From the NCBI GenBank assembly GCA_000995185.1, contig LCET01000001.1, positions 169,028 to 213,180 on the forward strand: DNA of 44,153 nucleotides. Reading direction: 5' to 3'. This document shows positions 11,363 to 20,919 of this stretch, one piece after another; position 1 is the stretch's first letter, and every line of letters begins with the position of its first letter. The stretch comes from Candidatus Woesebacteria bacterium GW2011_GWC1_42_9. Lineage in GTDB: Bacteria; Patescibacteriota; Microgenomatia; UBA8517. The translations under genes and the position numbers were made by a program. The notes below the pieces were generated by a model. It made no database searches and was not told where the DNA came from. It saw only the letters and a program-made list of their open reading frames with translations.

Positions 11363-11377
11363 TTTCCTTTGGAAAAG

Positions 11378-11421
11378 TGGTATACTGGAGCAGTCCCCCA
11401 GACATTGGGGGAAGTTTTTTT
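11378..11421 (+). promoter_or_regulatory. Extended -10 plus hairpin/T-tract before typA
   Basis: TGgTATACT 11378-11386; TCCCCCA-gacat-TGGGGGA 11394-11412; T7 11415-11421. Confidence 0.55.
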
Positions 11422-13281
11422 ATGAATATGAGTGAACAAAAAGATAAAAGGAATATTGCCGTTATTGCCCATGTAGACCATGGCAAGACAACACTAGTGG
11501 ATGCTCTTTTGAAACAAACTCATACTTTTCGTGAAAATGAGGAGGAGATGGGGAAGGAGCAAATTATGGATTCAGGCGACCTTGAACGTGAACGAGGGAT
11601 TACTATTTTGGCCAAAAATTGTGCAGTTGATTATAAAAATACGAAGATAAATATTATTGATACGCCTGGTCACGCGGATTTTTCAGGTGAAGTTGAACGA
11701 ACATTAGGAATGGCAGAAGGAGCACTTTTGATCGTGGATGCTCAAGAAGGACCGATGCCGCAAACAAGGTTTGTATTACGGCGTGCTTTGGAACTGGGCT
11801 TAAAGATTATTGTCGTGATTAATAAAATTGATAAAAGGTTTGCTCGCGTTCCTGAATCGGTATCTAAATTGGAAAGCCTTTTTTTAGAATTAGCAAAGGA
11901 TGAGTCTCAGCTTGATTTTCCGATAATTTATGCCATCGGGAGGCGCGGGGTTGCGTTTAATACTTTACCTGAAGATATGGAACAAAAGGGAGATATTACT
12001 CCACTTCTTGATTTGATCATAAGTCATGTACCGGCACCTAAAAATTCTCCTCTGGGGACTTTTAAAATGGTGGTTACTACGCTTGATTATGAGCCTCATC
12101 TTGGACAGATCGCTATCGGTAAAATTTTTAGAGGCAAGCTAGTTAAGGGCGAGAAAGTAATTGTCACTAACTCGCCTGGGAAAATATATAAAGTAGAGAA
12201 GGTTATGGTCCCTCGGGGCCTGGGAAGAGTTGAAGTCGAAGGCGCTGAGGCAGGCGAAATAGTGGCCATAGCCGGCGTTGATAATCTTAAAATTGGCCAA
12301 ACAATTTCTGATCCTAGTGATACGACCCCGCTTCCGGAAATCGCAGTTTCACCACCCACTTTGCATATCACCCTTGGTCCAAATACTTCCCCCCTGGCAG
12401 GCCAGGAAGGAGAGTATTCCACCGGCAGGCAAATTGAGGAAAGACTTAGAAAAGAAATAGAAACAAATCTAAGTTTAAAGGTCGAGGCACTTGGGAACGG
12501 TAAGTTTAAGGTGTCTGGAAGAGGTGAGCTTCATCTGGCGATCTTACTGGAGACTCTTCGGCGTGAAGGCTATGAAATGGAAGTCGGTAAGCCCGAAGTT
12601 ATTCTCAAAAAAATTGATGGAGTACTAAAAGAGCCGGTGGAAGAGGTAAACATTATTGTCCCTCAGGAGTTTGTCGGAGTTATAAATCAAGAAATGGGTA
12701 AACGGTATGCAAAAATTCTTAAAATGGAGGCGATTTCTGAGGAAGAAACAGAATTTATCTATCAATTCCCGACTCGCGCTATGATCGGCCTCCGCGGCCT
12801 ACTTTTAAATCTCACCAAGGGGACAGTTGTCATGAGTTCGCAAGTAATTGCCTATGAAAAAATTGGTCGGGAACTACCAAAATTAAGGCGTGGAGCATTG
12901 ATTTCGCAATCCTCAGGATCTGCTTTGGCTTATAGCCTTGAAACCGCCCAAAATCGAGGGATCACTTTTATCGATCCGGGAGAAACTGTCTATGAAGGGA
13001 TGATCATCGGCCAAAATGCGAAAAACGAAGATATTGAAATAAATGTATGCAAGGGTAAAAAACTGACAAACATGAGGAGTAAATCTTCGGACGGGATTAT
13101 CCAGTTGACCCCAGCCACGAAGCTTTCTTTGGAACAATCGCTTGATTTTCTGGAACGTGATGAGCTATTGGAGATTACCCCAAAGAGTTTGCGCTTAAGA
13201 AAAAAACATCTTACTGTTTTGGCCCGAAGGCGAATAAACCGCGCCGCCCGCTCGAGCCAAGCCACCCAAGCGATGATTTAA
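11422..13281 (+). CDS. typA: Translational GTPase TypA/BipA
   Basis: RNIAVIAHVDHGKTTLVD, ERERGITILAK, DTPGHADF, GRGELHL, KKLTNMRS, LEITPKSLRLRK; start revised to ATG 11422. Confidence 0.98.
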   Translation: MNMSEQKDKRNIAVIAHVDHGKTTLVDALLKQTHTFRENEEEMGKEQIMDSGDLERERGITILAKNCAVDYKNTKINIIDTPGHADFSGEVERTLGMAEGALLIVDAQEGPMPQTRFVLRRALELGLKIIVVINKIDKRFARVPESVSKLESLFLELAKDESQLDFPIIYAIGRRGVAFNTLPEDMEQKGDITPLLDLIISHVPAPKNSPLGTFKMVVTTLDYEPHLGQIAIGKIFRGKLVKGEKVIVTNSPGKIYKVEKVMVPRGLGRVEVEGAEAGEIVAIAGVDNLKIGQTISDPSDTTPLPEIAVSPPTLHITLGPNTSPLAGQEGEYSTGRQIEERLRKEIETNLSLKVEALGNGKFKVSGRGELHLAILLETLRREGYEMEVGKPEVILKKIDGVLKEPVEEVNIIVPQEFVGVINQEMGKRYAKILKMEAISEEETEFIYQFPTRAMIGLRGLLLNLTKGTVVMSSQVIAYEKIGRELPKLRRGALISQSSGSALAYSLETAQNRGITFIDPGETVYEGMIIGQNAKNEDIEINVCKGKKLTNMRSKSSDGIIQLTPATKLSLEQSLDFLERDELLEITPKSLRLRKKHLTVLARRRINRAARSSQATQAMI

Positions 13282-13512
13282 GAGCTGGTCACCGTACTTT
13301 GCTCGAACCTATTTAGCCAGGATGAGTATATCAAAGGATATCTACTCGACCCCGATTTGCCACTTATTACCAAAGTAAAAATCGGTCTTTACTACTACAT
13401 CACCAGTGACCTTATTTTACAACTAAACGTATTTAAAGACTATCTTGAGAAAATAAATCCATTTCTATTTTTAGAAGTATTTGGTAAACGATGCAAGGAT
13501 CAAAAATATTAA
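13282..13512 (+). repeat. Cassette end B, copy 1 (start-less 76-codon open frame)
   Basis: Direct repeat of 15605-15844; translates ELVTVLCSNLFSQDEYIKGYLLDPDLPLITKVKIGLYYYITSDLILQLNVFKDYLEKINPFLFLEVFGKRCKDQKY*. Confidence 0.9.
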
Positions 13513-13571
13513 TGAGTGATTAATAATTTCAAGGTTCATTTGCCTTTGGCAAAGTTAACATACCCAAAAAT

Positions 13572-14522
13572 TTAAACTATTTCAACACTTTTATTCCAAT
13601 ATTCATCAAACGCTTTCTTTATTTCATCATAGTTCTCAGTCAGGTTTATTTCTGACCTTTGACCTGACGAAATAGCATTAACGTTTGGTACATTTCTCGC
13701 ATAATCCACATCATCAATAATCCAACGATCGTGAGCATCTCGAACTAGTTTGCTGTCAATGGTAGCCCAGGAAACATCGATATTCTTATTAGCCATTTCT
13801 TGCTTAAATCGTGTAAGATCTTTCCGAGCAGTGGTATTAAGATTGCCTTCGCCCAGGTCTAGGGATATTATGCGTATTTGCTTAATTTTACTAGCATCAG
13901 CAATAGCCCAAAGCCACTCAAGAGCCTCTTTTTGAAAGTGCTTATCAAGCCAGTAGATGCCACCTTCGCATTCACCCAGTACCTTTTTTATCCACATGAT
14001 ATTAGAGAAAGGACGATTAGGATCTATAAATATATTTCTTGGTGTTTGAGGAGAGTCGGGAGAAATCAAAATACGTACAATCCGTGTTTTTTTATTGTAA
14101 TTAATAATTTCCGCATAATTCATGAAGTCTAGCAAATGCGTAAGTGGTTCTCGCGAATCATAAAACCAAAATCCCGTTGTTTTTAGAACCGTTAAAACTT
14201 GCTCAACTGTTATATTGGCAACTCCCCAAAGATATTGTTGTATGGCAATAGTTGGAGGGTAAAATAGAAGCATTTGTTTGAGCAACTCTTTTTCCCCACC
14301 ATCACAACGGATAAAGAGTGACTCAAAAATAGCTCTACCCAATTCAGACAATTCACCAGTTGCCGAATCACTGAAAACACCTAGTTCTTCCCAAAAAAGG
14401 TAGTCGTCTCCTAGATCAAGATGGCTAATCGCCCCAGTTTCGCCAGCAGTTCTTATGTAGGGTAGTACCTTTTTCCAATTAGTTTTTGGGAGAAGTATCG
14501 TCTTTTCTGTTGTTTGACTCAT
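13572..14522 (-). CDS. Hypothetical protein: probable wHTH-like N-terminus plus PLD-fold (HDR-type) nuclease-like domain
   Basis: ELSELGRAI wHTH-like wing; C-terminal 'IYWLDKHF...IRIIS...AHDRWIIDD' pattern of PLD-like domains. Confidence 0.6.
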   Translation of the reverse strand: MSQTTEKTILLPKTNWKKVLPYIRTAGETGAISHLDLGDDYLFWEELGVFSDSATGELSELGRAIFESLFIRCDGGEKELLKQMLLFYPPTIAIQQYLWGVANITVEQVLTVLKTTGFWFYDSREPLTHLLDFMNYAEIINYNKKTRIVRILISPDSPQTPRNIFIDPNRPFSNIMWIKKVLGECEGGIYWLDKHFQKEALEWLWAIADASKIKQIRIISLDLGEGNLNTTARKDLTRFKQEMANKNIDVSWATIDSKLVRDAHDRWIIDDVDYARNVPNVNAISSGQRSEINLTENYDEIKKAFDEYWNKSVEIV

Positions 14523-15282
14523 GTTTTTTGATTTCCACTTCTACTGCTTTTTCCAATGCAGACATTTGGTCCCTGAACGTACCCATATTGAAAGCAAATT
14601 GGAGGTTCTTAGGGTACGATAGAGCGATACCACTAGGGAATTCAACTGTAATCATCTCTGGTCGCACATTTGTAATTGGAGCATAACTACCTTTAGTTTC
14701 GTTTTTTAGAGGATTGGCATGAGTTTGTACAGGATCATTATCAATACCAACTTCATCATCCTTAACTAAAATTTCACTTGAGACAATTCCATTCTGATAA
14801 ACACCTGCGTATTCAATGGACTTGCGAAAGATGTTTGCCACGTTATCTGCAACCTTCTGACCAATTTTATGGCTACGCACAAGAATACTGCTTAGTGCAG
14901 TAGGCACTGCATGGCCGGCAAACTCATTAAGAAGCGTCTTGTATAGTTTTGGAGCTGTAACAGCTAACTGTTTAGCTGTTTGGAGATCATTATCGTCAAT
15001 CGGGTGTGCAAAACTGAGGGAGAGGTCAGTATTTCGATAGGCATTGCCTTCTCGACCAAGTAAGCCAAAATGTACAAGAGAGGCAACTTTCATTCCAACT
15101 GGGCCAGTTACTTTTTCATAACCCATTTCCTTAACAGCGTTATCCCTACTAAACGCTGACTTACTAAACGCTGTTTGAAGCTTAGCGCTATAGTTAATAG
15201 CATCTTCAAGCGTAATTGATGGATAAGATGCACTACGTTCTTTTGTTTTCACTTGTTTAGTGGTTGGTTGTTCTTCTGTCAT
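14479..15282 (-). CDS. Hypothetical protein, probable winged-helix DNA-binding protein
   Basis: 'SYPSITLEDAI...MGY...VASLVHFGLL...YRNTDLS...PKLYKTL' pattern; overlaps the downstream gene by 44 bp. Confidence 0.6.
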   Translation of the reverse strand: MTEEQPTTKQVKTKERSASYPSITLEDAINYSAKLQTAFSKSAFSRDNAVKEMGYEKVTGPVGMKVASLVHFGLLGREGNAYRNTDLSLSFAHPIDDNDLQTAKQLAVTAPKLYKTLLNEFAGHAVPTALSSILVRSHKIGQKVADNVANIFRKSIEYAGVYQNGIVSSEILVKDDEVGIDNDPVQTHANPLKNETKGSYAPITNVRPEMITVEFPSGIALSYPKNLQFAFNMGTFRDQMSALEKAVEVEIKKHESNNRKDDTSPKN

Positions 15283-15314
15283 AGATTTACTTTCTTTAAT
15301 AACTTTATTTAATC

Positions 15315-15344
15315 ATTTTACATCAGGAAAATACCACTTGTCAA
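15315..15344 (-). promoter_or_regulatory. Promoter for the 267 aa/316 aa operon
   Basis: Minus strand TTGACA (15344-15339), 18 bp, TAAAAT (15320-15315). Confidence 0.65.
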
Positions 15345-15465
15345 CACTGTTCTATGTGTTGTTCTTTGGCTAGTCTTAACATATCCTGGGTAAAAGATAA
15401 TAATTCGGTATAGTTGTGATAATAATGATATAGAACACTGGTAAATTAATAATTTTGTATTAACT

Positions 15466-15608
15466 CTAGTACGTAGGTCCGACTCCGGTTATCGGTATGA
15501 TTTTTTCCAGGCTAAATATAAGACGTTAAAAATAGTGGCTAGAACTCGGGATAATGTTGATTTATTGAGGGAAATTGGAGAAAACACAAAACCATTTCGC
15601 TATTGAGC
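15466..15608. repeat. Cassette end A, copy 1 (non-coding)
   Basis: Aligns with 19800-19941 through blocks CTAGTAC, AGGTyCGAyTCCsGTTA, TCCAGGCTAA, GGCTmGAACTCGGGAkAATsTTGATTT, ACAAAAC, CGmTATkGAGC. Confidence 0.85.
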
Positions 15609-15844
15609 TGGTAACCGTAATTGGCTCGGACCTATTTAGCCAGGACGAGTATATCAAACAGTATCTACTCGACCCCGATTCGTCACTTATTACTAAAATA
15701 AAAATAGGTCTTCGTTACTACATTACAACTCAGCCTGAGTTAATTTTACAGCTTACCGTTTTCAAAGGCTACCTGGAGAAAATCAATCCGTTTCTATTTA
15801 TGGAGGTATTCGGTAAAGATCGCGAAGATAGAAAAATATGGTAA
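15575..15844 (+). CDS. Small conserved junction protein spanning the A1|B2 junction (end B copy 2 = 15605-15844)
   Basis: Roughly three-quarters amino-acid identity to the B1 frame, ~16 synonymous differences and an in-frame 6 bp indel; start uncertain (TTG 15575 or ATT 15602). Confidence 0.65.
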   Translation: MEKTQNHFAIELVTVIGSDLFSQDEYIKQYLLDPDSSLITKIKIGLRYYITTQPELILQLTVFKGYLEKINPFLFMEVFGKDREDRKIW

Positions 15845-16027
15845 TATTGGGGTACCGAATGATCCCTGTAGTGAAAGTATCTTACTATTAGGGAACTGAC
15901 GACACAAATTCATTTGTGATCCGTACATGAATGATTTTTTGTGTTTAGGGGGAAAGTCTGCGATCAGGAGAGACAAAAACAGGCATATACGAGCCTTTAT
16001 ATGCTGCAGATGAGAGGTATTTGTACC

Positions 16028-16085
16028 CGCGAGGCGGGTTGGAAGGAGTTTGGGGAGTAAATCCGCCGCGCCAAAAATTTTTTTT
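16028..16085 (+). terminator. GC-rich hairpin upstream of the restriction gene
   Basis: GGCGGGTT (16033-16040) pairs with AATCCGCC (16060-16067); followed by A5 then a T-run. Confidence 0.45.
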
Positions 16086-16115
16086 AAAACGTAGTAAAAT
16101 CAACTAGAGGTTAAT

Positions 16116-16952
16116 ATGGCAAAAAAGAATCAATCTAAAAGATTAACTAATCAACATAAAGAATCCCAAGGTGCAGTTGGTATATTTGGAGACGAGGCAA
16201 AGTTCCACGATACAACAGTTAGTAAAATTTCACATCTTGTAATTGAGCAACTTGAAAATGAATTTCCTAAATTAACTTTTAGGCATAGGACAGCAATAAA
16301 AAAGAATGAGATAAACGAAGCATTAAAGAAAATTGATCCAGAATTAGGGCAAACCCTTTTTGTATCAAATTCAAGCATTATCCCAGACGGCGGAATAATT
16401 GAAGTAAAAGATGATAACGATATTTGGAGAATATTGCTTGTAACAGAAGCTAAGCATCAAGGAAAAGATATTGAAAATATCCAAAAAGGAAATTTAGTTG
16501 GCAAAAATAACAATCAAGACTTGATGGCAGCTGGTAACGCAATAGAAAGATCGCATAAAAATATATCAGAAATCGCCAACTTTATGCTACATGAATCCCA
16601 TTTCCCTTATATCTTATTTTTGGAAGGATCAAATTTTCTTACTGAAACTATTTCAATTAAGAGACCAGATGGAAGGGTGGTTACTCTTGATTATAACTCA
16701 GGCATGTTAAATAGATTAGATAGATTGACTTCTGCAAATTATGGAATGCCAATTAACACAAATTTATGTAAAAATAAATTTGTTAAACACAAAGATAAAA
16801 CCATTATGCTTCAGGCAGCTTCGATATATACGCAAGGTAATGGTGAAAAATGGGATGTAAGAGAAATGCTTGACATTATGATTGAGATTTCAAAAACCTC
16901 TCTTCAGGTATTAGGAAGTGAGATATTTAACCAGATAACTAAAGATAAATAA
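16116..16952 (+). CDS. ecoRIR: EcoRI-family type II restriction endonuclease (predicted GAATTC)
   Basis: Full-length close similarity to R.EcoRI: PDGG...EAK catalytic motif, LMAAGNAIERSHKN recognition arm, NRLDRLT. Confidence 0.96.
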   Translation: MAKKNQSKRLTNQHKESQGAVGIFGDEAKFHDTTVSKISHLVIEQLENEFPKLTFRHRTAIKKNEINEALKKIDPELGQTLFVSNSSIIPDGGIIEVKDDNDIWRILLVTEAKHQGKDIENIQKGNLVGKNNNQDLMAAGNAIERSHKNISEIANFMLHESHFPYILFLEGSNFLTETISIKRPDGRVVTLDYNSGMLNRLDRLTSANYGMPINTNLCKNKFVKHKDKTIMLQAASIYTQGNGEKWDVREMLDIMIEISKTSLQVLGSEIFNQITKDK

Positions 16953-16968
16953 CCAAAACCATTTGATT

Positions 16969-17988
16969 ATGGCAAGAAAAGCGACAAATAAATTACTGCA
17001 AAAAGCTAAAGAATCAAAGAGCGATGAATTTTACACTCAGCTTTCTGATATTGAAAATGAATTAAAGCATTATAAAGATAGATTTAAAGATAAAGTAGTT
17101 TATTGTAATTGCGATGACCCTAGAACTAGCAACTTTTATGAGTATTTTTCCTCAAATTTCAAAGAGTTGAGGCTAAAAAAAATCATAGCCTCTTGCTACA
17201 GAAAGCAAGAAAGAGATTTATTTAATAATAAAGAATTTGAAAGTGGGTTTTTTTATGAATATTCAGGTACTCAGGGCGAAAAAATAAAACCAAGCGCTAA
17301 TGATATAATCCACTTTAAAGGAGACGGGGATTTTCGTAGTTCAGAAAGTATAGAATTATTGAAACAGGCGGATATTATTGTAACCAATCCACCATTTTCA
17401 TTATTTAGGAAATATGTAGATCAATTAGTTAAATACGATAAGAAATTTTTAATAATTGGCAACATTAACGCTATTACCTATAAAGAAATTTTTAAACTAA
17501 TTAAGGGAAATAAGGCGTGGCTAGGAATAAATTTAGGTAGAGGTATCTCAGGTTTTATTGTGCCAGAACATTATGAACTTTACGGAACAGAGGCACGTAT
17601 TGATAGCCTTGGAAATAGAATAGTTTCCCCAAATAATTGTTTATGGTTAACTAATTTAGATACTTCTAAAAGACATGAAAACATTACTCTTACAAAAAAA
17701 TATTTTGGAAATGAAATCGAGTATCCATATTATGATAACTACGATGGAATTAATGTAAATAGAACAAAAGATATTCCTCTGGATTACGAAGGTGTTTTGG
17801 GCGTACCCATAACTTTTTTACATAAATATAACCCAGAACAATTCGAAATAATTAAATTCAGAAAAGGAAATGATGAAAAGGATTTGTCAATAAACGGTAA
17901 ATGTCCGTATTTTAGAATTTTAATCAAGAAAAGAATACAAAAAAATAGAACTGACGACACAAAAATATTAGTTAGTGATTTGTCTTAG
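16969..17988 (+). CDS. ecoRIM: EcoRI-family adenine-specific DNA methyltransferase
   Basis: MARKATNKLL.KAK.SKSDEFYTQ, YCNCDDP, GDGDFRSSES, TNPPFSLF; start revised to ATG 16969. Confidence 0.96.
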   Translation: MARKATNKLLQKAKESKSDEFYTQLSDIENELKHYKDRFKDKVVYCNCDDPRTSNFYEYFSSNFKELRLKKIIASCYRKQERDLFNNKEFESGFFYEYSGTQGEKIKPSANDIIHFKGDGDFRSSESIELLKQADIIVTNPPFSLFRKYVDQLVKYDKKFLIIGNINAITYKEIFKLIKGNKAWLGINLGRGISGFIVPEHYELYGTEARIDSLGNRIVSPNNCLWLTNLDTSKRHENITLTKKYFGNEIEYPYYDNYDGINVNRTKDIPLDYEGVLGVPITFLHKYNPEQFEIIKFRKGNDEKDLSINGKCPYFRILIKKRIQKNRTDDTKILVSDLS

Positions 17989-18026
17989 CCATAGGGGTCG
18001 CCTTTTTAGAGAAATAGTTAAGATTC

Positions 18027-18518
18027 TTATTCTCCCAACTCTCCAGTAGTTCTAATTGGATCACCTATCAAAATCGAGTGAAACTCATCCTCTGGCAAAC
18101 GTTCTCTTTTAAATACTTGCCATCCTAAGTCGTAAACCGTCTTCATATTCCAAATGTGATGTTTGTGTAATGTAACTAGATCGTGTAAATAAATGGCTCC
18201 AGGAGCATTTTCGCTCTCTATTATTCTAAACTTATTGCCGTATTCATTAATTGGATACTTTTCTCGGTAATACTTAATGCTTCTTTTCCGTGCCAGTTCA
18301 TCTCTAAAATAAGAACTACCAAAATATGCACCAATGATAGCTGCTAAACCAATACTAATTTTGTTGAAGTTGTCAGCTATTGCATTTAGATTTTCTAAGG
18401 GGAGAAAAAAATGGGCAAGTACAAAGATTAAGAAGGATATAATCAGGAAAGCCTTGTAGGTTTGGACCTGTTTTCTGAATTTTTTCCAATTTTTCTTAAA
18501 CCTTTTCTTGTTTAACAT
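18027..18518 (-). CDS. Hypothetical membrane protein (2 TM plus small beta domain)
   Basis: Two hydrophobic helices, then 'IYLHD...KHHIWNMKTVYDLGW.......EF.SI.IGDPI'. Confidence 0.7.
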   Translation of the reverse strand: MLNKKRFKKNWKKFRKQVQTYKAFLIISFLIFVLAHFFLPLENLNAIADNFNKISIGLAAIIGAYFGSSYFRDELARKRSIKYYREKYPINEYGNKFRIIESENAPGAIYLHDLVTLHKHHIWNMKTVYDLGWQVFKRERLPEDEFHSILIGDPIRTTGELGE

Positions 18519-18526
18519 ATTTATTT

Positions 18527-19762
18527 TTATGGAAAATGAAACAGCAATACAGTAAGTAGCAATTCTCTTTTCGTGTCGACATTCAGGTGAAATCTGAATC
18601 TTTGTATTGTTCCTTCTGCTTCTTCACTCTCTAAATTTATAAAGTTACTATGCTTTTTTGCAGCTTCTCTTGCCGTAGTTATTACATTAGTGAAGTCAGC
18701 ATTTCTTACGAAGACCATAATTGAGGCTTTAGAATCTCTCCAAGTAAGATATTTGAGTATTTGGTCGATAGTTTCAATAAACTTCTTTTCCCCTGTCCAA
18801 AATTTGCACTCGGCAATAAAAGTGTTATTTCCGTCATGTCTAAGTAAAATATCTGTTTTACCCGATTTATTGAACGTTTCACCCGTAGCTGATCCTTCAA
18901 AGTTGGTTTCTAGAATTATTAGAAAATGATCTCGCAGTCCTTCTTCATCTTTGTTGGTATAAACAGCCGGCATTCTTTCAATCTGTTTTCCCATATCGTG
19001 GATAACACGAAGTATTGCGTTATATGTTTCAGTATCTAGAGTTGGATCTGGGGTTCCAGAATTGCTTGGAGATGGTCTCGGAATAATTTTCTTTTTAGCT
19101 TTCGGAGCAGGAATAGAAAATGTGCTCGGAACGTTATCTCTTTTTTTGACGGGGACACCCAACTGGTCCAAGAAACTATTATTAGATTTCAAGCTTTCTT
19201 TTCTTTCCTTAAGCAACATCCTAGCATTCTCTGATAAGCTTGCATTGTAATTATTTACTTCGTTTGCAAGATTTCCAAGCTGTTTTTGTAAATTGGAAAG
19301 ATTTTGGTCTGAGTCTCTTTTTGTTTTTTCGGCATCATTGGTGAAGTTAATAATCTCAAAACATAAAAACTCTCCATCATCATTAATTTCATGATCAAGC
19401 TCGATGGTCCATAGAAGTGATGTACTTGGTTTGAAGTTTATTACTTCAATCTCGCCGTTGAAGGGTAAGTGGTATTTAATAGCTTGCCTTGGATAAGATT
19501 TATTGTCAGTAATAAAAAAACTTTCTCGAGGATGTCTGTCAGCAGGAATCATTTTTTCTTCATGGGTTATAAACTTGTTTTCGATATCTAGTATTGGAGG
19601 ATCTATAGAAAACTCAGAAACTAAATGTTCAACATATTCATTCTCGTTTATATTCAGAATGTAGCCTGTCTCTTCTGAGTGAATTTTGTTTTTGAGTTTC
19701 TCCTTTTGGGAGCGCAAAACATCTCCAAAATACCCTTTAGTGAAGGGAGTAATAGTACTCAT
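18527..19762 (-). CDS. Hypothetical protein with coiled coil and C-terminal PD-(D/E)XK nuclease-like domain
   Basis: EEGLRDHFL...GETFNKSGKTDILL...FIAECKFW...DQILKYL. Confidence 0.72.
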   Translation of the reverse strand: MSTITPFTKGYFGDVLRSQKEKLKNKIHSEETGYILNINENEYVEHLVSEFSIDPPILDIENKFITHEEKMIPADRHPRESFFITDNKSYPRQAIKYHLPFNGEIEVINFKPSTSLLWTIELDHEINDDGEFLCFEIINFTNDAEKTKRDSDQNLSNLQKQLGNLANEVNNYNASLSENARMLLKERKESLKSNNSFLDQLGVPVKKRDNVPSTFSIPAPKAKKKIIPRPSPSNSGTPDPTLDTETYNAILRVIHDMGKQIERMPAVYTNKDEEGLRDHFLIILETNFEGSATGETFNKSGKTDILLRHDGNNTFIAECKFWTGEKKFIETIDQILKYLTWRDSKASIMVFVRNADFTNVITTAREAAKKHSNFINLESEEAEGTIQRFRFHLNVDTKRELLLTVLLFHFP

Positions 19763-19799
19763 AATTGGATCTGATATTAGCAGAAATCTACATTGACTG

Positions 19800-19941
19800 C
19801 TAGTACAGGTTCGATTCCCGTTACCAGTGTTGCGACTCTCCAGGCTAACGCAATTTTTGCAAAATATAAGGCTCGAACTCGGGAGAATCTTGATTTTAGG
19901 GGGAGATTTTTAACTACTACAAAACTAGTCCGATATGGAGC
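19800..19941. repeat. Cassette end A, copy 2 (abuts tRNA-Gly 3' end)
   Basis: Homologous to 15466-15608; holds a perfect 14 bp inverted copy (19808-19821) of tRNA-Gly 19947-19960. Confidence 0.85.
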
Positions 19942-20009
19942 GGGATACGGGAATCGAACCCGTGTCTCTACCTTGGGAAGGTGGCGTACTACCATTGTAC
20001 TAATCCCGC
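19936..20009 (-). tRNA. tRNA-Gly(CCC)
   Basis: Acceptor GCGGGAT/ATCCCGC, loop TTCCCAA, T arm ACGGG-TTCGATT-CCCGT, ends TCCA; one C-A mismatch in anticodon stem; TGtTATAAT at 20030-20022. Confidence 0.95.
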
Positions 20010-20032
20010 TTAGGCAGGTAAATTATAACATC

Positions 20033-20638
20033 TTAAGGTAATACAAACACATTCCCGGGATGAATAAGATCGGGGCTCGTCAGTTTGTTTGCCCTGGCAA
20101 TTTCTACCCATTTATATCCATTCCCATATTGAGCTACCGCTATATCCCAAAGCGTGTCCCCTTTTACAACAGTGTATGAGGAGGAAGTTGTGAGTCCTCC
20201 TTTTGTCGTTGTGGGAGCAATTTCTGGTGTCGCTGAGGGCTGTGGTGTAGCTACGGCCACTGCTGTCGCCTCTGGGGTGGCTACCTCTGCCACTTCGGAG
20301 GTCCTAGCAGGGACGTTTGGAACAACGAGCGTCTGTCCTTCAGCAATATCGTCGGCGCTTGTTAGATTATTTTCTTCCACGATATCCACCCAGTTATATC
20401 CAGTTTTATAATACTTTTCGGAGATAGACCAAAGTGTTTCTCCGCGGACTACTGTGTGAGTAGCCGGAAGAGTTACTTCGTCACTAACTGAAACTCCTGA
20501 GGGAAGAGTGGTTCCAGAATCTAAATTGCGGAAGTAGTTAACTACTAAAACGCCAACTACAACGATAACAAAAATTCCCAAAATAGTGCTGATGCTCGAC
20601 TCGTTTAGTTTAAAGATCTTAAGTAATGATTTAAGCAA
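20033..20638 (-). CDS. Membrane-anchored protein with two LysM domains
   Basis: HTVVRGETLWSISEKYY and YTVVKGDTLWDIAVAQYG, Ala/Thr/Pro linker; SD AAGGAGGTGA. Confidence 0.93.
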   Translation of the reverse strand: MLKSLLKIFKLNESSISTILGIFVIVVVGVLVVNYFRNLDSGTTLPSGVSVSDEVTLPATHTVVRGETLWSISEKYYKTGYNWVDIVEENNLTSADDIAEGQTLVVPNVPARTSEVAEVATPEATAVAVATPQPSATPEIAPTTTKGGLTTSSSYTVVKGDTLWDIAVAQYGNGYKWVEIARANKLTSPDLIHPGNVFVLP

Positions 20639-20675
20639 ATTTATTCACCTCCTTGTAGGGCAATTAACTTAAATG

Positions 20676-20704
20676 AATCTAATGATTTAGTTTGATATTG
20701 TCAA
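20676..20704 (-). promoter_or_regulatory. Promoter for the LysM gene
   Basis: Minus strand TTGACA (20704-20699), 17 bp, TAGATT (20681-20676). Confidence 0.7.
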
Positions 20705-20778
20705 GTAGTGATTTTGCCGATCTTTCCATCACTTTAATGGATTAAAGTATTGAGGGGATAAAGATGATTTTATATGGG

Positions 20779-20852
20779 CGAGGCTGAGGGGATTTGAACC
20801 CCTGATCTCTTCCGTGACAGGGAAGCGCTTTAAACCGCTAAGCTACAGCCCC
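20779..20852 (-). tRNA. tRNA-Asp(GTC), canonical
   Basis: Acceptor GGGGCTG/CAGCCTC, CTTCC-CTGTCAC-GGAAG, G73, C38. Confidence 0.96.
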
Positions 20853-20919
20853 AAAACACCTTATTGTACAATTTTTAGCCTAATTATTCCAGAATTTAAA
20901 AAAAAGGGGGGGTTGAGGT

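Follow-up and report, generated by a model that had tools for sequence, protein, structure and literature searches.

Tandem integrase-less cassettes at the tip of a tRNA-Gly gene in a Woesebacteria genome, and a conserved small gene that appears to begin inside their crossover site

Introduction

Tandem integrase-less islands at tRNA-like genes, attachment sites located within reading frames and expression that depends on a recombination junction are each already known, separately, from described mobile elements. Here, a stretch of 44,153 nucleotides from the genome of Candidatus Woesebacteria bacterium GW2011_GWC1_42_9 (GenBank assembly GCA_000995185.1, contig LCET01000001.1, positions 169,028 to 213,180 of the forward strand; hereafter the window, to which all coordinates refer unless a locus is named) was analysed, in which two small cassettes without an integrase lie in tandem at the 3′ tip of a tRNA-Gly gene. 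Each cassette consists of a left-end module (B), cargo and a right-end module (A), and the reading frame of B opens at the four bases by which the cassette adjoins its left neighbour. What appears to be new is a left-end gene family, well defined and widespread, whose reading frame opens within the crossover site and whose start codon is supplied by the complement of a tRNA CCA end or by a neighbouring cassette. A literature search, which covered articles without their supplementary files, returned no description of these cassettes or of the B family.

The closest described counterparts are the ssrA islands of Dehalococcoides, for which the available part of the report of McMurdie et al. 2011 (PMC3146451) describes cis-mobilizable elements (CIMEs), tandem accretion, a CcrB-like serine recombinase and a 20-bp repeat. 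Like those islands, the cassettes stand in tandem at the 3′ end of a tRNA-like gene and are bounded by repeats of that end, and in both cases units without an integration module occur. Unlike the islands as presented in that part of the report, the cassettes are nearly all integrase-less and very small (median of cargo plus A 1.3 kb), share a core of 4 bases instead of a 20-bp repeat, and each keep a protein-coding end module that starts inside the site. The tycheposons of Prochlorococcus, which encode tyrosine integrases and have partial tRNAs of tens of bases at their boundaries according to the accessible portion of Hackl et al. (bioRxiv 10.1101/2020.12.28.424599), are likewise tRNA-anchored islands that grow by repeated integration, newer units pushing older ones outward and leaving degenerate units and partial tRNAs behind; measured against that portion, the cassettes differ in being integrase-less, in their 4-base core and in their defined A and B modules.

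Two further systems resemble the cassettes in the way a junction bears on a gene. In the myxophage Mx8, intP is converted to intX because the attachment site lies inside the integrase frame (PMC6070905, as excerpted), so that, as with B, the recombination site is within a reading frame of the element and integration alters the encoded product. In Mx8 it is the integrase's own 3′ end that is swapped, as far as the excerpt describes, whereas B is a separate gene of 79 codons that loses its start and is not fused to an integrase; the interrupted frame of split integrases of the Mx8 and SSV type is the integrase's own, which is not the case for B. In ICEclc, the circle joins the promoter Pcirc to the integrase gene, as demonstrated by experiment in the available part of Delavat et al. 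2017 (PMC5812530). In both cases the joining of ends puts an expression signal of one end before a gene of the other end; unlike Pcirc as described there, what would be joined to B is a start codon and perhaps a promoter.

Like integron cassettes, the units form rows of small one-gene or few-gene elements with diverse accessory cargo at one docking site, with the recombinase elsewhere. Unlike integrons, they dock at a tRNA tip and not at attI, and the repeated unit holds a conserved protein gene. No attC-like site with a GTTRRRY core was found at the junctions, and no tyrosine recombinase adjoins the arrays.

Results

Two tandem cassettes at the 3′ tip of tRNA-Gly(CCC)

The source genome comprises 0.89 Mb in 19 contigs. 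Positions 13282-19937 of the window are two tandem integrase-less cassettes inserted at the extreme 3′ tip of a tRNA-Gly(CCC) gene, and the order on the plus strand is flank, B1-cargo-A1, B2-cargo-A2, tRNA-Gly. The features of the region are as follows.

11377..13281, plus strand: typA/bipA, chromosomal left flank (ORF, open reading frame; Pfam GTP_EFTU 2e-56, BipA_C 2.1e-42)
13282..13285, no strand: left junction core GAGC, attL-like; the same 4 bases open B2 and the reverse complement of the tRNA-Gly 3′ end
13282..13512, plus strand: B1, 76-codon frame of the B family without a start codon of its own (ORF list, genome search, codon alignment)
13572..15282, minus strand: cargo of cassette 1, two overlapping ORFs of 316 aa (13572-14522) and 267 aa (14479-15282) without family match
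15464..15604, plus strand: A1, right-end module of cassette 1, alpha/delta type, with an in-frame TTG at 15575 (alignment to A2 and to the A family)
15605..15844, plus strand: B2, 79-codon frame of the B family opening with GAGC at 15605-15608 (ORF list, alignment to B1)
16116..16952, plus strand: cargo of cassette 2, EcoRI-type restriction endonuclease (Pfam EcoRI 3.4e-148)
16963..17988, plus strand: cargo of cassette 2, EcoRI-type methyltransferase (Pfam EcoRI_methylase 1.9e-128)
18027..19762, minus strand: cargo of cassette 2, 163-aa ORF of no family and 411-aa protein (ORF list)
18527..19762, minus strand: the 411-aa protein, matching the candidate defence family PDC-S54 (PADLOC, E 1.4e-139)
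19800..19937, plus strand: A2, right-end module of cassette 2, alpha/delta type, last codon ATG at 19935-19937 (alignments to A1 and the A family)
19938..19941, no strand: right junction core GAGC, attR-like (sequence reading)
19936..20009, minus strand: tRNA-Gly(CCC), the anchor (ARAGORN; Rfam tRNA, 65 bits)

The TAA stop codon of typA (13279-13281) directly abuts the first GAGC and is in the same frame as B1. At the other end, the plus-strand bases TGGAGC are the complement of the discriminator base and the CCA end of tRNA-Gly(CCC). A1 has a length of about 140 bases. The cargo of both cassettes together amounts to the EcoRI restriction-modification pair, the PDC-S54 match and three ORFs of no family, and no recombinase was detected in it by Pfam and PADLOC scans. 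An Rfam scan of A and B gave nothing besides the tRNA. Promoter-like sites are near background in the window (27 against 23.3 expected); one of them, at 15526-15555 inside A1, is directed into B2.

Several further features of the region were noted. Cassette 2 has the appearance of a small defence island, in which a complete EcoRI-type restriction-modification pair and the PDC-S54 protein stand together. Due to the common frame of B1 and typA, for which the odds by chance are one in three, suppression of the single TAA would add the residues of B1 to TypA. The starts of the alpha/delta A modules (19800-19835 and 15464-15500, plus strand) resemble a tRNA T-arm and acceptor 3′ strand in the orientation opposite to tRNA-Gly, with neither an Rfam nor an ARAGORN call. 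To the right of tRNA-Gly lies a gene for a LysM protein (20033-20853), whose homologue in the relative G068 (locus L011) is situated to the left of B and on the other strand, so that the region around the anchor has been rearranged between the genomes.

A family of cassettes with common ends

The family set contained 158 copies of B in 128 loci, collected from relatives, genome contigs, metagenome contigs and the window; two duplicate loci were dropped from later counts. By sequence comparison, the two cassettes of the window belong to a widespread family of the candidate phyla radiation, whose members combine a left-end B of about 240 bp with variable cargo and one of two types of right-end A. 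At least two copies of B were found in 28 of the 128 loci, with two to four copies per array, each preceded by an A module. The cargo plus A has its median of 1.3 kb over 98 complete cassettes.

A downstream tRNA gene is present within the locus for 102 of the 158 copies of B, and the next tRNA is a convergent tRNA-Gly in 99 cases, tRNA-Thr in 2 and tRNA-Leu in 1; for 44 of the 56 copies without a tRNA, less than 3 kb of sequence was left in the locus. The tRNA-Gly anchors carry the anticodon CCC, UCC or GCC, and the last B is separated from its tRNA-Gly by 0.23-7.4 kb. The left-hand neighbour of the first B is a different one in every lineage (typA in the window, a LysM gene in G068). In nine relatives of other genera, neither tRNA-Gly nor B was found within about 1.4 kb downstream of the typA orthologue, and the uninterrupted target was not reconstructed from them. 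A contig of WWE3 (L050:9924-10007) has a B that starts 9 bases beyond the 5′ terminus of a tRNA-Gly(UCC) gene, with the next 10 kb free of tRNAs; this B may mark the distal end of a far longer element inserted at a second tRNA-Gly.

A comparison of the 80 bases that precede B or tRNA-Gly yielded two large families, both ending at the same base. The A family with TGTA repeats was found 31 times before B and 25 times before tRNA-Gly, and the alpha/delta family, to which the modules of the window belong, 20 times before B and 33 times before tRNA-Gly. The alpha/delta module is conserved over about 140 bases and then changes abruptly to unrelated cargo. In the TGTA family (L010, L014, L030, L031, L038, L054 and others), 3-4 repeats with a spacing of about 10 nt stand beside the crossover and resemble protein-binding iterons or arm sites. 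B starts with GAGC or a near variant in all family loci, and cassettes of both A families are bounded by two attachment-site halves in register with the chromosomal target. Since the same right ends meet either B or tRNA-Gly at GAGC, the arrangement fits a site-specific crossover at these bases, and the alignments indicate that recombination joins the partners within GAGC.

The cargo of the family includes methyltransferases, GNAT acetyltransferases, NUDIX, HIT and DUF5677 proteins and AbiEii-like ATPases. Among the 25 most-matched families listed for 133 distinct cargo ORFs from the 98 cassettes there is no recombinase family, and a tblastn search with six recombinases found a single decayed copy inside a B element (L012); as in CIMEs, the units therefore lack a recombinase within these limits. 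One cassette in G068 (L011:9827-10657) carries an aminoglycoside-adenylyltransferase-like gene (Pfam AadA_C 1e-28). Aminoglycoside adenylyltransferases are a classic cargo of integron cassettes.

In three DNA sequencing runs (X1, X5 and X9), the summed contig depth over 13204-13504, 15311-15912 and 19826-20126 was several-fold above that of the cargo (34-46 against about 8 in X5), and the higher depth over B, A and the tRNA points to many other copies of B and A in the same communities. A run of another study contained a 2.0-kb contig that matches 17983-19883 with 78 differing letters.

B is conserved as a stand-alone protein gene

B1 and B2 are the largest direct repeat in the window, beyond chance, and the sole copies of B in the source genome according to a genome search. 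In the original prediction, both frames had been described as open for 76-79 codons from a common GAGC, with about 16 synonymous changes and an in-frame indel of 6 bp, as expected of a protein under purifying selection. The frames were found as described: B1 has 76 codons (stop at 13510-13512) and B2 has 79 (stop at 15842-15844). The codon alignment contains 17 synonymous and 18 non-synonymous codon differences, distributed 13/9/24 over the three codon positions, as well as the 6-bp indel (QP) and one further indel of 3 bp. The Nei-Gojobori method gave a synonymous rate (dS) of 0.66 and a non-synonymous rate (dN) of 0.15, i.e. a dN/dS of 0.23, which bears out the proposed selection for this pair. 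B1 and B2 represent two indel subtypes, each of which is widespread in the family, and for this reason they seem to have been acquired separately and not duplicated in place.

For the family, 86 distinct intact copies were compared in 3284 pairs with a dS of 0.1-1.5, the pairs not being independent. The median dN/dS was 0.33, and 99.8% of the pairs were below 1. The ratio is not uniform along the gene, amounting to about 1.04 in codons 1-12, 0.28 in codons 13-60 and 0.22 from codon 61 to the end. Third codon positions account for 46% of the differences, and the other two phases contain 5.3 and 6.6 stops per copy. In the first ten or so codons no phase looks coding (ratios of non-synonymous to synonymous differences, pN/pS, of 0.78-0.93) despite highly conserved DNA. 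The comparison thus argues for purifying selection on the B protein over codons 13-79, and we read the first 36 bases of B as a DNA site that mimics the tRNA and doubles as the recombination half-site, and the remainder as protein. A reading of the first 11 codons as the tail of a recombinase in the phase xGA-GCx was discarded, as the pN/pS of this phase was 0.78, similar to the other phases, and a TGA stands at the junction in 36 of 88 copies.

After the junction, the frame of B mostly has 77-79 codons (148 copies). Before it, the frame is open for at most 64 codons at 141 of the 142 junctions that are not cut by a contig end, with one exception of 144 codons. A word-indexed search yielded 152 relatives of B with 43-139 aa, many of which have 78-80 aa and start with M-E-L-V or M-E-L-D right at the junction, while others have unrelated N-terminal extensions that end there. 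A profile search over all 1.84 billion representative proteins gave 53 matches, all of at most 164 aa. Word searches among longer proteins yielded no relative of B and nothing for the read-through ORF from A2 to the tRNA. Homology among the relatives thus starts exactly at the junction, in agreement with the proposed link between the two, and the outcome named in advance as speaking against it, that B is simply the C-terminus of a longer known protein, was not encountered. Taken together, frame and length indicate that in none of the sequences reached does B form the terminal part of a longer protein, and the comparisons support B as a genuine stand-alone gene of 77-79 codons.

An AlphaFold2 model of B shows four helices with moderate confidence (predicted local distance difference test score, pLDDT, of 71). 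The protein is not basic and no winged helix is predicted. Three hypothetical roles had originally been put forward for it, as a directionality factor, a copy-control protein or an addiction module; its resemblance to recombination directionality factors such as Xis is confined to size (79 aa) and position beside the site.

Start codons at the junction

It had been proposed that B1 lacks a start codon, that A2 ends in an ATG directly before GAGC, and that a start is gained only when the two are joined. The first two observations were reproduced. The first in-frame start of B1 is an internal TTG at 13357, and with no start before it B1 could not be translated as it stands. A2 ends in ATG, the TG of which belongs to the complement of the tRNA CCA end, and an in-frame TAG lies three codons upstream of the junction. 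A circle or tandem junction that places A2 before either copy of B would create ATG-GAG-CTG and hence a protein starting with M-E-L-V-T-V, and this junction was found consistent with the two A families, which keep the same register before B and before tRNA-Gly. The codon in front of B2 is ATT, which is not a start; the frame of B2 is open back to the TTG at 15575 in A1, resulting in an ORF of 89 aa that is 10 codons longer, so that B2 appears readable only from the TTG inside A1.

The codons at the junctions of the family were as follows.

Internal A-B junctions (n=51): ATG 12, TTG 15, GTG 0, CTG 8, no NTG 16
Copies of B without an upstream A module (n=90): ATG 12, TTG 10, GTG 1, CTG 10, no NTG 57

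A usual start (ATG, TTG or GTG) is therefore present at 27 of 51 internal A-B junctions and at 23 of 90 other junctions. NTG is common at this place because TG is the complement of CA in the encoded CCA end. Across the family, B seems to lack a start of its own and to be provided with one either as NTG, made of the last base of the left-hand DNA and TG, or as an in-frame start deeper in the left-hand DNA. The idea of a start gained only by joining thus describes B1 and A2 and does not extend to those 23 copies, which possess a usual start at the junction without an upstream A. Nor is joining sufficient, given that 16 of the 51 internal junctions have no NTG and that the window's own A1-B2 junction reads ATT-GAG. 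The picture of a start acquired by joining fits the window and is partly supported for the family, where it holds about half the time.

A candidate recombinase acting in trans

The recombinases of the source genome, four of the tyrosine type and one large serine recombinase, are encoded on contigs other than that of the window. The ORF of the serine recombinase (549 aa, G000:C2:57345-58994) ends inside a convergent tRNA-Asn(GTT) gene (C2:58953-59027), which points to a separate element with an integrase gene that extends across the element's attachment site; a short BLAST search for the far end of that element gave nothing usable. Homologues of the serine recombinase encoded upstream of a B array in locus L080 were found in 65 of 101 relatives, and the genome G039 contained as many as 12 matches. 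Of 12 recombinase loci that were inspected, 10 have an ORF that extends into the 3′ end of a convergent tRNA gene, and the tRNAs concerned (Glu, Arg, Val, Pro, Trp, Ser, Leu, Gln, Lys and Gln) are of nine types. The decayed recombinase copy in L012 lies at the A end of a B element beside tRNA-Gly and is 77-78% identical to two of these tRNA-crossing enzymes.

The identity common to all junction partners is 4 bases, and a core of this length fits a serine recombinase. Moreover, a TCGRAYY motif begins at base 22 in most of the distinct B starts (71 of 81) and at base 17 in most of the tRNA-Gly ends (62 of 76). For serine integrases, a zinc-ribbon-domain motif positioned 5 bp further out from the centre in the attP than in the attB half-site is described in the part of Rutherford et al. 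2013 (PMC3783163) considered here. The possibility that the A modules are remnants of the 3′ end of a recombinase gene was dropped, as blastx of the modules against recombinase C-termini gave nothing significant beyond tRNA-encoded residues. A prediction of the complex between B and residues 150-538 of the L080 serine recombinase scored 0.00, which is not evidence either way. On balance, the chances are about even that the cassettes are moved in trans by the abundant large serine recombinases of this lineage that target tRNA tips.

Discussion

Weighing of the proposed organisation

The interpretation that accounts best for the observations is that of integrase-less cassettes at tRNA-Gly which carry a selected, stand-alone B gene that starts inside the crossover site and receives its start from the joined DNA. 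As a whole, we regard it as probable, with ample room for doubt.

The following observations weigh against it. Start classes were counted at the 142 junctions that are not truncated by a contig end, copies of at least 70 codons being taken as intact. A usual start stands at the junction in only 49 cases, an in-frame start lies further upstream in 34, and 59 have none. Among the copies without a possible start, 42 of 59 are still intact, compared with 44 of 49 with a junction start and 28 of 34 with an upstream start, in counts that derive from related sequences; the trend itself fits a weaker constraint on copies that could not be translated. A Shine-Dalgarno-like motif precedes 3 of the 49 junction starts and 362 of 5000 random positions, in a test that is weak because the control with cargo ORFs was likewise low (16 of 133). 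Only 20 of 53 alpha/delta A modules have retained the in-frame TTG. In the contigs of four DNA runs no clean circle or empty-site joint was found, these contigs being fragmented and breaking at B and A; the few joints that did occur have short sides (24-46 letters) or extra letters in between and probably derive from copies of B in other organisms. With respect to the recombinase, the evidence for the shift of 5 bp is a single 7-base motif, namely the universal T-loop, and the similarity at an offset of 5 (7 of 15) is close to that at an offset of 0 (6 of 15). None of the ten tRNA-crossing recombinase genes is at a tRNA-Gly, three of the seven B-positive genomes among the 101 (G062, G064 and G068) have no match to the L080-type recombinase, the two A families share no evident half-site, and the TGTA-type repeats, with their spacing of about 10 nt, look more like arm sites of tyrosine integrases. 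Finally, B had no family match in Pfam, PHROGs, PADLOC or NCBIfam, no usable match in the ESM Atlas, and no fold match in Foldseek against PDB (best E-value 6.2) or a wide VIA-align search (best Z 3.3), so that its role is pure inference.

Alternative explanations

The strongest alternative keeps the same architecture and replaces the enzyme: the cassettes would be moved by a tyrosine integrase that uses arm-type sites, or by some other enzyme, with B as its small Xis-like accessory protein. The TGTA repeats of the A modules (termed beta and gamma) right beside the crossover would suit such sites, and the source genome has four candidate enzymes. B shares 12-13 bases with the local tRNA-Gly in several loci (L011, L030), beyond what a serine integrase needs. 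The integration sublocations known for tyrosine integrases reportedly include the extreme 3′ end of tRNA genes. However, none was found in or beside the arrays, and only L022 has one within 10 kb, beyond the array. The four bases common to all partners, the non-basic B protein with no predicted winged helix, and the fact that the abundant integrases of the lineage are serine recombinases that cross tRNA tips argue in the other direction, and this alternative is accordingly judged unlikely.

Somewhat less likely still is an origin of B as a C-terminal piece of the large serine integrase that the element itself encodes. The integrase gene would run across attP, integration would sever the tail and leave it at the far end, and the cassettes would be decayed descendants that inherited the tail. 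This explanation draws on the ten recombinase ORFs that cross a junction into a tRNA, three of which (L169-L171) read the tRNA tip in the phase of B (xTG, Gxx), on the decayed recombinase at the A end beside tRNA-Gly in L012, and on the intP/intX precedent of Mx8 in the excerpted source cited above. Against it stand the exhaustive profile search without a match above 164 aa, the empty word search and the short upstream frames at 141 of 142 junctions, 51 joined A-B junctions included. The A modules have no significant similarity to recombinase C-termini, B occurs in only 7 of the 101 relatives compared with the recombinase in 65, and a search of IMG/VR viral contigs found no relative of B. The decayed recombinase of L012 also meets the junction in a different phase, a weak point given that the gene has a frameshift and a deletion.

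A third possibility, which is improbable, is that B is not translated at all and that the conserved block is a recombination arm constrained at the DNA level, its frame being a by-product or relic. In its favour are the first 12 codons, with a ratio near 1 in all three phases and highly conserved DNA, the 59 copies with no possible start, the ribosome-binding motifs that are not enriched (by the test with the weak control) and the lack of any family or fold match. The low dN/dS beyond codon 12, the excess of third-position differences, the stops in the other phases and the frame kept at 77-79 codons in most of 148 copies are not accounted for, and sites of serine integrases need only about 50 bp and not 240 according to the available part of PMC3783163.

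That B is an ordinary resident gene flanking a variable hotspot by tRNA-Gly, outside any mobile unit, would agree with B and tRNA-Gly bracketing variable cargo in every relative examined, and is nevertheless very improbable in view of left-hand DNA that differs in every lineage, two to four copies of B per array each behind an A module, anchors of three anticodons, and typA orthologues in nine relatives with no B or tRNA-Gly downstream.

Possible mechanism and role of B

Under the favoured organisation, a tRNA-tip-targeting recombinase would excise and integrate the cassettes in trans, in the manner of CIMEs and of the Dehalococcoides ssrA islands. Because B is kept intact in every cassette while the cargo varies freely, selection on B would act at the level of the cassette. 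It may tentatively be proposed that the B protein serves cassette mobility as a partner or modulator of the recombinase, its supply being set by what the cassette is joined to. An excision factor of the Xis type fits poorly, since it would have to be present ahead of excision, at a stage when a lone B lacks a start. A protein that acts after joining, in a circle or at an internal array junction, would fit this wiring better, and could modulate re-integration, stabilise arrays or exploit a helper. In a more specific and still more doubtful version, the A-B junction would be a recombination-state switch: B would be made only when the right end of a cassette, or another cassette, is joined to its left end, and would act on a trans serine recombinase or a helper phage to decide between integration, excision and packaging. 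If this version is true, the B protein would be a small directionality or hitch-hiking factor of a kind not seen before, its start being donated by the complement of the tRNA CCA end.

Significance for the candidate phyla radiation

In bacteria of the candidate phyla radiation, genomes are tiny and few routes of gene exchange have been recognised. Minimal cassettes that bring restriction, defence and detoxifying genes to tRNA-Gly tips, as found in 128 loci, would constitute one such route. The presence in every cassette of an intact, selected B that begins inside the recombination site suggests that the cassettes encode something for their own propagation and are not passive debris. If the supply of B depends on the joined DNA, the cassettes would moreover offer a compact natural case of expression wired to the recombination state, and a handle for finding the recombinase.

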